From a bacterium (lineage in GTDB: Bacteria; Cyanobacteriota; Vampirovibrionia; Gastranaerophilales; Gastranaerophilaceae), in contig JAFRAO010000043.1 of the NCBI GenBank assembly GCA_017405375.1, positions 111-64,110 of the forward strand: a stretch of DNA of 64,000 bases. The letters are read 5' to 3'. How positions within the stretch are numbered: the stretch's first letter is position 1; the number at the start of each line of letters is the position of its first letter. Positions 17,255 to 32,897 of the stretch are shown in pieces. The translations under genes were made by a program, and so were the position numbers. Under the pieces are notes generated by a model, which had not been told where the DNA came from, did no database searches, and saw only the letters and a list, made by a program, of their open reading frames with translations.

Positions 17255-17283
17255 TTGCAATTTTTGGAGTAATAATGTATTAT
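17255..17283 (+). promoter_or_regulatory. Sigma70-like promoter upstream of the pilin-like locus
   Basis: TTGCAA (17255-17260), 17-nt spacer, TATTAT (17278-17283). Followed by AAGGAG 17306-17311 and ATG 17318. Confidence 0.5.
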
Positions 17284-17369
17284 AAAACAGTAAGTAGTAA
17301 AAGAGAAGGAGTTTAGTATGAAAAATATAAAAAGTAGCGTAAAACCCTTTGTAGACTGCATTTTAGTTA

Positions 17370-17382
17370 GGGGGGGGGGGGG
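17370..17382 (+). repeat. Poly-G homopolymer (13 G), candidate slipped-strand phase-variation tract
   Basis: Counted directly: the g at 17370, ten g at 17371-17380 and gg at 17381-17382. No comparable G/C run occurs elsewhere in the window. Confidence 0.9.
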
Positions 17383-17468
17383 CTAAACTCTCTCGTAGCA
17401 AGGCTTTCGACCTATTTGGACCTCTAAAAAACTTTGTTTGTAACCTCTTTAAAGGTGAACTGTCCAAA

Positions 17469-18332
17469 GTGAACAGTAAACAGAGTCGTCAGTTCGCACA
17501 TAACAGTTTACAGTCAACCGTTCACTCCCTCGCATTTACTCTTGCTGAAACATTAGTCGTAATGGGCATAATCGGTGTTGTAGGAATTTTGGTAATTCCA
17601 AATGTTAATCATAATTCTCAAAATATACATAATGCCGTTAAATTAAAAAAATTGCATACGAATTTACAACAAGCACTAATGTTAGCAATAAATAAATATG
17701 GTCCGTTAAGTAGTTGGTATGATGACTCTTCATATGTGAATGAATATGGAGGGCAACATACTCCATTTACTGATAGTTTTTTTCGTTATTGTCAAAGAAT
17801 ATCAGAATTTTTGAATGTGCAAAAAAGTTGTGGTGATGTTGAAATTAATCGGGATGGCTCTACTTACTTCGACAAAGCATCTATAATACTTACGGATGGT
17901 AGTTATATTAGGTTTGATGTACCCTTCTGGGGAGCTGATTCAAATGATAGATGGGCATGTAGTGTACCTGAAACATACTATCCGTTAGATATGTCTGTAG
18001 ATATAGATGGATTAAATAAAGGAAAGAATACTGCAGGTATTGATAAATTTCAATTTTACGTATCAGAGAAAGATTATAAGCTTAAATCATATGGGGGGTC
18101 TTGGTGGTGGAAAGACGAAGGTCAAGAAAATTATTGTTACTCTGATGATGATAAAGATTTTACATTACCCGGCCCAAGTATAAAATATTGTTTTAAAAAT
18201 AAAGACATTAATTGCACAGCTTGGGTAATGAAAACCGGTAACATGGATTATCTCGATGCAGATGAAAACGGCAAATGCAAACAAAGTAATAAAACATTAT
18301 CTGTTGATAATGGGGTATTTAGCTGTAAGTAA
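17469..18332 (+). CDS. Type IV pilin/pseudopilin-like protein (prepilin-type N-terminal helix), start uncertain
   Basis: AFTLAETLVVMGIIGVVGILVIPN matches the prepilin cleavage/methylation-type hydrophobic N-terminus. The C-terminal part is Cys-rich. The frame stays open upstream as far as the poly-G tract. GTG 17469 is the first start in the current frame. Confidence 0.75.
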   Translation: MNSKQSRQFAHNSLQSTVHSLAFTLAETLVVMGIIGVVGILVIPNVNHNSQNIHNAVKLKKLHTNLQQALMLAINKYGPLSSWYDDSSYVNEYGGQHTPFTDSFFRYCQRISEFLNVQKSCGDVEINRDGSTYFDKASIILTDGSYIRFDVPFWGADSNDRWACSVPETYYPLDMSVDIDGLNKGKNTAGIDKFQFYVSEKDYKLKSYGGSWWWKDEGQENYCYSDDDKDFTLPGPSIKYCFKNKDINCTAWVMKTGNMDYLDADENGKCKQSNKTLSVDNGVFSCK

Positions 18333-18340
18333 AACAAGTT

Positions 18341-18719
18341 TGTCATGCTGAAAACGTACCTTTATGTGTCATTCTGGAAGCGTAGAAAACAAGCACTTTT
18401 GTGCGTAGTTTTCTTGCTGTTCAGAATCTTTCAAACTATTAAGTACTCATTTGACGTTAAGCAGACCCTGAAACCAGTTCAGGATAGACAGGGGAGATTA
18501 TAATTCCTGCGGAAAATGGGACATTATAGACCCTGAAAAACCAATAATAACAGGTCATTCCGAACTTGTTTCGGAATCTAAAACAAAGAATAGACCCTGC
18601 GGGAAACCGGACATTTTTCTCAAAATCAAAGATTTTGGAAAAAGTAGTCAAACAAGTTCAGGGTGGACAAAGGTTGTTTTCAGGATAAATCTACCATTCA
18701 TCGGCTATTCAGCATGACA
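18341..18719. repeat. Hairpin-rich modular repeat element (copy A) closed by a perfect 12-bp inverted repeat
   Basis: TGTCATGCTGAA (18341-18352) pairs with TTCAGCATGACA (18708-18719). Internal modules are shared with 32690-32897. AGACCCTG recurs at 18463, 18528 and 18592. Confidence 0.8.
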
Positions 18720-18734
18720 CAATAAGATTACAAC

Positions 18735-18764
18735 AAAAAAGGATACCTGATGGTATCCTTTTTT
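18735..18764. terminator. Bidirectional rho-independent terminator
   Basis: AAAAAA-GGATACC-tgat-GGTATCC-TTTTTT, between convergent genes. Confidence 0.8.
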
Positions 18765-18787
18765 GTTAAATACATTTATAAAATCAA

Positions 18788-27902: not shown

Positions 27903-28165
27903 AGCCGTACTCCACGGGGACTTAGCGAATCCCTCGACTCGAACGCTTAGCGAGGTGCAGAGCCTACTGTGAGGCTTGTATGGGTGTTAATAATATGGTT
28001 AGTATTGTTGACAGATTAGATTATGGTGGCATAAGCTATCGAACCATGTCAGGGTGGAAACACAGCAGCATTAAGATAATACTTATGGGTATCATATATT
28101 TAATAAAGAGATATTAATTATAAAGTTAATATTTGTACAAATCGATAGGTAGTGGTACGGTTTTT
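27903..28165 (+). ncRNA. ffs: Signal recognition particle RNA, long form with Alu domain (Bacillus scRNA-like)
   Basis: Domain IV core GAACCAUGUCAGGGUGGAAACACAGCAGCAUUAAG resembles B. subtilis scRNA GAACCAUGUCAGGUCCGGAAGGAAGCAGCAUUAAG. The 5' GCCGUAC pairs with the 3' GUACGG, followed by a U run. The 3' AAUCGAUAGGUAGUGGUACGG resembles AAUCGACAGAAGGUGCACGG. Confidence 0.85.
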
Positions 28166-32689: not shown

Positions 32690-32897
32690 AATTCGGTGAC
32701 AAAAATTGTTGTTCAGGGCAACATACCCTTATTGTGACATGGTGAAAACGTAGAAAATACCATAAAGTGCCAATTCCGAACTTGTTTCGGAATCTATTCT
32801 ATGTTATAGATTCTGAACTAAGTTCAGGATAGACAAGTATTTAGGAATCCTGCGGAAAACCGGACATTTTTCTCAAAATCAAAGATTTTGGAAAAAA
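32690..32897. repeat. Hairpin-rich modular repeat element (copy C), mosaic of the modules seen at 18341-18719
   Basis: 24/24 identity between 32773-32796 and 18557-18580. 15/15 identity between 32821-32835 and 18476-18490. About 48 nt with 1 mismatch between 32849-32897 and 18596-18644. Confidence 0.8.

Follow-up and report, generated by a model that had tools for sequence, protein, structure and literature searches.

The window analysed here, a stretch of 64,000 nucleotides (nt) with a GC content of 30.3% from a Gastranaerophilaceae assembly (GCA_017405375.1, contig JAFRAO010000043.1), carries on its forward strand a gene for a pilin-like protein headed by a homopolymer of 13 G (17370-17382), which we propose to be a slippage-prone switch present here in an OFF length. 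The tract, called unique in an original prediction made from the letters alone, is the only run of seven or more G or C in the window, and composition gives a chance expectation of about 1e-6 such runs (0.15^13 x 64,000 x 2). Upstream of it, on the same strand, lie a putative sigma-70-type promoter (17255-17283, with -35 TTGCAA at 17255-17260, a 17-nt spacer and -10 TATTAT at 17278-17283, matching the consensus at 9/12 positions), a Shine-Dalgarno (SD) sequence AAGGAG at 17306-17311, and, after a 6-nt spacer, an ATG at 17318 with 17 pre-tract codons (17318-17369, MKNIKSSVKPFVDCILV), the tract beginning 52 nt after this ATG. Downstream follow the post-tract leader (17383-17531, forward strand), which reads AKLSRSKAFDLFGPLKNFVCNLFKGELSKVNSKQSRQFAHNSLQSTVHSL in the pilin frame and has 0 stops there vs 2 and 6 in the other frames, a prepilin-type motif A↓FTLAE (17532-17549, forward strand, the arrow marking the predicted peptidase cleavage between A and F), and the mature pilin-like protein (17535-18332 with its stop codon, forward strand), composed of an N-terminal hydrophobic helix, an alpha/beta domain and a C-terminus ending in SCK.

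The promoter that the prediction had named is present and conserved, but its matches are not enriched over shuffles (9 promoter-type matches in the scan vs 8.5 expected), so it would not be significant alone. Its support comes from conservation and not from the scan score, because -35, -10, SD and ATG are all kept in three other species. In an alignment with loci of the same subfamily from these species (L083, L084 and L085), TTGCAA and the -10 region are in register, AAGGAG or GGAG occupies the same position in the three loci and also in most family members, and the ATG is kept in all four species. Phase variation of the transcriptional type, acting on the promoter spacer, was ruled out because the tract does not separate -35 from -10 but follows the ATG by 52 nt. 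As for a G-quadruplex, 13 contiguous G would give a weak two-tetrad structure at best.

As sequenced, the frame of ATG 17318 encodes MKNIKSSVKPFVDCILVRGGGG and ends at a TAA located 1 nt past the tract (17384-17386, forward strand), which would serve as the OFF-state terminator. The pilin frame, on the other hand, is free of stops from TAG 17364-17366 across the tract up to AFTLAE at 17532. Changing the tract in silico to 12 or 15 G fuses the ATG to the pilin-like open reading frame (ORF), with products of 337 and 338 amino acids (aa), respectively, whereas 11 or 14 G lead to a stop after 35-36 codons and 10, 13 or 16 G to a stop directly behind the tract; all OFF lengths tested stop at codons 21-36. 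Therefore, the position of the tract and of the start signals, the stop with 13 G, the open pilin frame and the effect of 12, 14 and 15 G are as had been predicted. Only the leader length differs, being 72 aa (a stretch that includes the peptide AKLSRSKAFDLF...) instead of about 80 aa.

Gene callers and NCBI place the start at GTG 17469-17471 (forward strand), a codon that may be an internal start or may have been picked only because the frame is OFF, and the resulting 287-aa ORF is identical to a database protein (P0001) named "type II secretion system protein [bacterium]". An SD-like AAAGGTGA is found at 17451-17458, 11 nt upstream of this GTG, a spacing that is longer than optimal. Counted from the GTG, the leader before the cleavage site has 21 aa, which is a normal length among type IVb-like pilins, whereas the 72 aa counted from ATG 17318 exceed the short, positively charged leader of type IV pilins (about 5-30 aa). 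The cleavage motif itself has the features of a prepilin, with A↓FTLAETLVVMGIIGVVGILVIP followed by a hydrophobic helix of approximately 20 residues and a Glu at +5, and it is invariant in 19/19 aligned homologues. Moreover, a profile built from 78 family members aligns with residues 1-54 of solved type IV pilins (PilA), GspG and Geobacter PilA-N (best E=5.8e-6), its F (position 24) falling on residue 1 of these mature proteins. The AlphaFold model has a mean predicted local distance difference test score of 76.5 and contains helices at residues 18-38 and 48-77, followed by a beta-sheet.

The evidence that carries the proposal of a switch comes from relatives of this gene. A scan of species-representative genomes gave more than 445 of them, most in metagenome-assembled genomes (MAGs) labelled Melainabacteria, Gastranaerophilales or Cyanobacteria, and the locus counts below rest on the best 80 (L003-L082, 368,740 nt), among which alone there are 10-14 members per genome. 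In these 80 loci, 17 runs of at least 8 G or C are found, all of them sense-strand G located 20-390 nt upstream of AFTLAE and none elsewhere. These equivalents of the window tract, from 17 GTDB loci, comprise 8-12 G, and in the 16/17 with upstream DNA present an SD-ATG precedes the tract by 18-41 nt; family-wide, starts of the MKN.. type lie 18-52 nt 5' of it. The layout shared by the family consists of a -10 TATACT, an SD, an ATG, 6-13 codons, G8-12 (13 in the window) and TAAAAC(C)TAGTAGTAA, which in frame is read as G-V-K-P-S-S-N. Also, in the wider family, the post-tract TAAAACCTAG brings TAA and TAG into the two OFF frames no later than the fourth codon, so that translation in either of them is cut short immediately. 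Scanning metagenome_contigs with the exact post-tract sequence of the window subfamily gave 0 matches, and a family-level pattern gave 8 loci.

In all tract-bearing loci tested (17/17), the pilin frame is open from the tract to the motif over 147-387 nt of AT-rich DNA (50-130 codons), whereas the other two frames contain 2-18 stops each. A shuffle test of this openness gives a summed log10 P of about -43, a value in which paralogous loci are not independent of each other. The window tract is uninterrupted, exceeds the length of about 7-8 at which homopolymers become able to slip, lies in the 5' coding region and toggles with its length between a full-length and a truncated frame, and such tracts are over-represented and specific to one class of genes, all of which are features of contingency loci.

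A relation between tract integrity and frame is also observed. Counting one entry per locus, those with a longest G run of at least 8 have the ATG in frame (ON) in 4 cases and out of frame (OFF) in 19, the window being among the latter, whereas those with a longest run of 7 or less, or an interrupted one, are ON in 10 cases and OFF in 4 (Fisher's exact test, p=0.0017; p=0.0006 if the threshold is set at 7). Within the long-run class, the three frames are represented 4, 9 and 10 times, which is compatible with a random length modulo 3 (chi-square p=0.26). For example, the ATG is in frame in the interrupted tracts of L083 (G5TG7) and of L084 and L108 (G5ATG8), and it is out of frame in L085 (G10), where the gene caller picks a downstream start, and in L107 (G7TG5). 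The three species sharing the AKLSRSKAF... leader have mature proteins 39-47% identical to the window protein. This split is what would be expected of a real start at the upstream ATG combined with long tracts that drift in length, and it is hard to square with a start downstream of the tract.

Moreover, the length of the tract varies between assemblies at the same locus. A locus flanked by genes for AdoHcyase and an M48 peptidase (locus A) has 8, 9, 11, 9, 9, 10 and 10 G in seven assemblies, 10 being the in-frame length; here, the 80-nt upstream flanks are identical in L092 (8 G) and L097/L098 (10 G), and the other alleles are one to several single-nucleotide polymorphisms apart. Another locus, preceded by SpoU and carbohydrate kinase genes (locus B), has 9, 9, 10, 10, 10 and 10 G, and L032 differs from L104 by 12 vs 11 G. 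In the three cases, the flanks are near-identical between samples. The comparison of orthologous loci proposed in the original prediction thus finds tracts in relatives, with lengths that vary (8/9/10/11, 9/10 and 11/12), and the reproducibility of these lengths within sample groups argues against random assembly error. At the window locus itself, 13 G are found in both of two independent assemblies. In protein clusters at 90% identity, the called N-termini differ in length (e.g. 350/298/243 aa and 315/287 aa), as expected if ON and OFF alleles were present. In L086-L087 (locus B, G9), the SD-ATG is out of frame and an ORF is called from a TTG without SD that lies upstream of the tract, with a 315-aa product (MKINRFIFRGGVKTS...); this call makes the length of called proteins unreliable as an ON/OFF read-out.

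Altogether, we consider it probable that the tract is a hypermutable simple-sequence repeat and that slippage in it decides whether translation from ATG 17318 ends after 22 codons or yields a prepilin whose leader has 72 aa, and the window locus is best described as a contingency locus caught in the OFF state. Slipped-strand phase variation of the pilin-like gene, as originally predicted, is supported by the recurrent layout, the exclusive position of the tracts, the length polymorphism in relatives and the association of frame with tract integrity; this support comes from sequence comparison with relatives and not from reads of the window locus, where we infer switching, slippage and reversibility. 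In the proposed mechanism, transcription would begin near the promoter at 17255-17283, and ribosomes would start at the SD-ATG at 17318. If the tract has 12 or 15 G, they would translate a cytoplasmic leader of 72 aa and continue into A↓FTLAE, and the prepilin could then be cut by a prepilin peptidase and assembled by a type IV pilus or pseudopilus machine, whereas with 13 G translation would halt at TAA 17384 and the gene would be OFF. Slipped-strand mispairing during replication would gain or lose G, leading to a stochastic and heritable on/off switching within the lineage. Since paralogues in relatives each have their own promoter, ATG and tract, a population could show changing combinations of pilin-like proteins. 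The use of ATG 17318 as start, the cleavage between A and F and a surface or filament function are likewise predicted features of this scheme.

Several observations weigh against this proposal. The window locus is carried by two assemblies only, both with 13 G and hence with no length variation there, and the 337/338-aa ON allele is absent among the matches of a 5.8-billion-protein search. Also, tract lengths are assembly consensuses, and single values may hold Illumina homopolymer errors. Four members have a short or interrupted tract and are nonetheless out of frame (L005, G7; L082, G6; L015, G5; and the G7TG5 of L107). Moreover, GTG 17469 with its SD-like element could give a tract-independent expression, that is, a leaky OFF state. 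The leader peptide appears unconstrained: among four subfamily sequences, the substitutions in the leader (17383-17531) number 15, 16 and 19 by codon position (given as "of 49"), with no third-position bias, whereas in the adjacent mature N-terminus (17532-17600) they number 6, 3 and 17 (given as "of 23"), with a strong one. This absence of bias suggests that the openness of the leader is selected and its peptide sequence is not. As for the product, the cut-offs of curated hidden Markov models are not reached, neither for PF07963 (N_methyl, 12.9 bits vs 21.2) nor for the NCBIfam models ComGC (28.4 vs 75) and GspG (16.5 vs 88.85), and no PDB structure was matched by Foldseek at E below 0.1, leaving the pilin fold unconfirmed. 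The label "pilin-like" should therefore be restricted to the N-terminal module, because the profile aligns the N-terminus and Foldseek finds no PDB relative. Finally, pilus machinery is absent among the 10 large window ORFs scanned; a Gastranaerophilales genome has been reported with pilA, pilB, pilC, pilD and pilT (PMC5877343).

Four other explanations were weighed. In the first, the gene would be constitutive, with its true start at GTG 17469 (287 aa and a 21-aa leader), and the upstream ATG, the tract and the open frame would be irrelevant. The choice of this GTG by the gene callers and NCBI, the SD-like element 11 nt upstream of it and a leader of a length typical for type IVb-like pilins favour such a start. 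However, a start downstream of the tract would not account for a pilin frame that stays open over 50-130 codons in 17/17 tract loci despite AT-rich DNA, nor for the conservation of promoter, SD and ATG ahead of the tract, nor for the ATG being in frame in 10/14 members with a short or interrupted tract. Moreover, GTG and AGGTG belong to a conserved part of the leader (NLFKGELS.VN) and need not be signals. For these reasons, we regard a constitutive gene as unlikely.

In the second explanation, RNA polymerase would slip, or the ribosome would shift frame, at the G run, so that a fraction of the messages regains the frame and expression stays constantly low whatever the length of the DNA tract; this could coexist with switching at the DNA level. 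RNA polymerase slips on long homopolymers, Belland is said to have described in 1989 the ribosomal frameshifting of gonococcal P.II (opa) genes in E. coli, and most long-tract members are out of frame in their consensus (19/23). Nonetheless, DNA tract lengths differ between strains, and stops occur within 1-4 codons in both OFF frames, which suggests selection for a tight OFF state, so that RNA-level slippage seems quite improbable as the explanation.

The third, a homopolymer sequencing or assembly error, had been offered as the alternative in the original prediction: the true tract would have 12 G, and an intact 337-aa ORF would be present with no switching. Illumina chemistry is error-prone on long G runs, and both assemblies consist of short-read MEGAHIT-style contigs (k141 names). 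Against an error stand the agreement of two independent samples on 13 G and the lengths seen across the family, which cover all three frames and are reproducible within allele groups, unlike random error; we give this explanation very little credence. The last, in which the frameshift would be a fixed inactivating mutation of a decaying pseudogene in a large and redundant family, OFF in both samples, is hardly credible, because the mature part of the 287-aa product retains every invariant family residue, no stop has entered the leader frame, the promoter, the SD and the ATG are undamaged, and the sole lesion is a one-base length change in a hypermutable tract.

Returning to the phase-variable gene, the leaders of the family differ greatly in length, from about 4 to about 130 aa, and are built of modules in varying combinations that are always in frame (ELSLVNSE.TNNKQANDNKV, SWIIASLGQVAHFTSVVIRN, SSRINEVHCGIL, LCHPELVSGSH and RFRNKFGMT), with mosaics found, for example, in L011 (838-1189), L013 (2162-2528) and L034 (2285-2552) and with in-frame elements resembling repetitive extragenic palindromic (REP) sequences as well. 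Some members have a classical short leader and no tract, such as L045 (MKKT↓AFTLAE), and in L052 the tract is only 20 nt before the motif (MNIFKIGGGVKPACSK↓AFTLAE). Behind its tract, the window gene encodes AKLSRSKAF↓DLF, a peptide similar to VKPACSKAF↓TLAE in L052, which has a short leader, and this sequence resemblance suggests that long leaders may have arisen when a switch-bearing relic N-terminus was placed ahead of another prepilin. The leader DNA of the window is 89% identical to that of L084 and L108, whereas the mature protein is only 47% identical to that of L084. A structured RNA or riboswitch in the leader was rejected, the fold of 17290-17540 giving no signal (z=0.57) and an Rfam scan at gathering thresholds giving only the signal recognition particle (SRP) RNA described below.

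The proteins P0002 and P0004 (L084, 1501-2472, and L108, 801-1784) come from the same locus in two samples, with an Abhydrolase_1 gene upstream, and are identical over approximately 240 aa, including the G5ATG8 leader, the C-terminal ~80 aa being unrelated. This pattern suggests a cassette-like recombination of the pilin head domain.

A wider proposal can be put forward, which is tentative and less likely than not. Gut Melainabacteria would possess a "wardrobe" of orphan pilin-like genes, ten or more of them spread over the genome, with portable switch cassettes, each cassette consisting of promoter, SD, ATG, poly-G and a relic prepilin N-terminus, fused in frame through repeat-laden, freely evolving leaders to diversifying pilin domains, and both cassettes and C-terminal domains would be exchanged by recombination. 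The proposal derives from the higher identity of leader DNA than of mature protein (89% vs 47%), the different C-termini of P0002 and P0004 and the echo of L052 in AKLSRSKAF↓DLF. If true, it would represent a combined phase- and antigenic-variation system in a commensal lineage, of a kind undescribed outside classical pathogens.

Some further observations concern the family and its assemblies. Several MAGs with multiple members (up to 10-14) are labelled Muribaculaceae, Anaerovoracaceae, Alistipes or Eubacteriales (L018, L041, L051-L053 and others, CAYLHN...; L007, L009 and others, CAVCIX...; L038), and these are probably mislabelled or contaminated Melainabacteria bins. In L012, a G5A8 (TCGGGGGAAAAAAAAGC) is found in frame at the tract position (about 2320-2340), where a poly-A tract may take the place of poly-G. 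A contig end lies within 450 nt upstream of AFTLAE in 27/80 loci; for example, L003 begins inside the G tract, L025 begins 13 nt before the tract and L002 (the window locus) 13 nt before the ATG. Assemblies break at the repeated leader or at the tract.

The window gene is an orphan, located outside any pilus operon between trkA/trkH and a HEAT-repeat gene, in a housekeeping region with genes for SecA, PNPase, AspRS, PurA and the SRP RNA; the nearest named relative of the window PurA comes from a Candidatus Gastranaerophilaceae MAG (74% identity), which fits a Melainabacteria assignment but is no proof of it. The bacterial large SRP RNA (27905-28160, RF01854, 88 bits) is the sole gathering-level Rfam match in the whole window. 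The AFTLAE-type ORF is single, with no second pilin-like gene in the window; a simple scan gave no terminator 3' of the gene, and no tRNA or tmRNA was found near the locus. The 455-nt 3' intergenic region (18333-18787, no strand assigned) contains REP-like inverted repeats, with TGTCATGCTGAA at 18341-18352 pairing with 18708-18719, and these are common to other pilin-like loci and paralogue leaders: blastn places matches 3' of the homologous genes of L083 and L108, and others within the leaders of L069 and L054. The same repeats recur in the window at about 32773-32896.

Phase-variable contingency loci are textbook knowledge for a small number of pathogens, among them Neisseria, Haemophilus, Campylobacter and Helicobacter. 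To our knowledge, they are hardly charted in uncultured commensals, and gut Melainabacteria have no cultured representative. The locus resembles Neisseria pilC1/pilC2, genes associated with type IV pili, in that a homopolymeric G tract lies in the 5' portion of the coding sequence and that one G gained or lost by slipped-strand mispairing would shift the frame and switch the gene; in pilC1 a change from G10 to G9 turns the gene from on to off within hosts (PMC5231331). However, PilC is a large adhesin or assembly factor associated with the pilus, has a Sec signal peptide and is encoded in 1-2 copies, whereas the window gene codes for a pilin-like subunit that carries a class III (prepilin) signal, its tract lies in an unusually long leader, its relatives carry 10 or more paralogues per genome, and there is no sequence homology. 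As in Neisseria opa, where CTCTT repeats lie in the region coding for the leader peptide, scattered paralogues of a surface protein each have their own promoter and a repeat in the leader-coding region and would switch independently by frameshift (PMC3960869). Unlike here, the opa repeat is a pentamer, the Opa proteins are outer-membrane beta-barrels and they occur in pathogens of the Proteobacteria instead of uncultured gut Melainabacteria.

Poly-G contingency loci have reportedly been described in Campylobacter jejuni (Parkhill et al. 2000; Moxon, Bayliss and Hood 2006). They share with the present family tracts of 8-13 G that stand out in a genome of ~30% GC, are located inside genes for surface structures and differ in length from strain to strain as well as within a strain. 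In Campylobacter, most targets are glycosyltransferases or genes that modify the flagella or the capsule, from unrelated families, whereas here one paralogous family has all the tracts seen. With type IV pilins and type II secretion pseudopilins, the product has in common the (G/A)↓FTLxE motif, the Glu at +5 and an alpha1 helix of ~20 hydrophobic residues. Unlike known pilins, residue -1 is Ala and not Gly, the leader has 72 aa, and up to ~130 aa in relatives, vs reportedly 5-30 aa, the globular domain has no detectable PDB relative and the gene is an orphan. The system is non-homologous to Neisseria pilC, opa or the Campylobacter loci, and its mechanism is classical. A search of the full-text literature on phase variation, homopolymeric tracts or pilins in Melainabacteria and Gastranaerophilales, and on DUF6613, found no description of such a system; the lineage, the DUF6613-like pilin-like family, the very long tract-hosting leader and the number of independently switchable paralogues appear undescribed.

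In practice, gene callers mis-start at internal codons when the tract is out of frame, giving "proteins" of 243, 287, 298 and 350 aa from clusters that are at least 90% identical, and repeated leaders break assemblies. The system is directly testable with existing metagenomic reads. If the pilin-like proteins do form a large family whose members switch one by one, gut Melainabacteria would continuously vary their surface, perhaps for immune or phage evasion or changed adhesion, and these genes would provide a concrete handle on the cell-surface biology of Melainabacteria.

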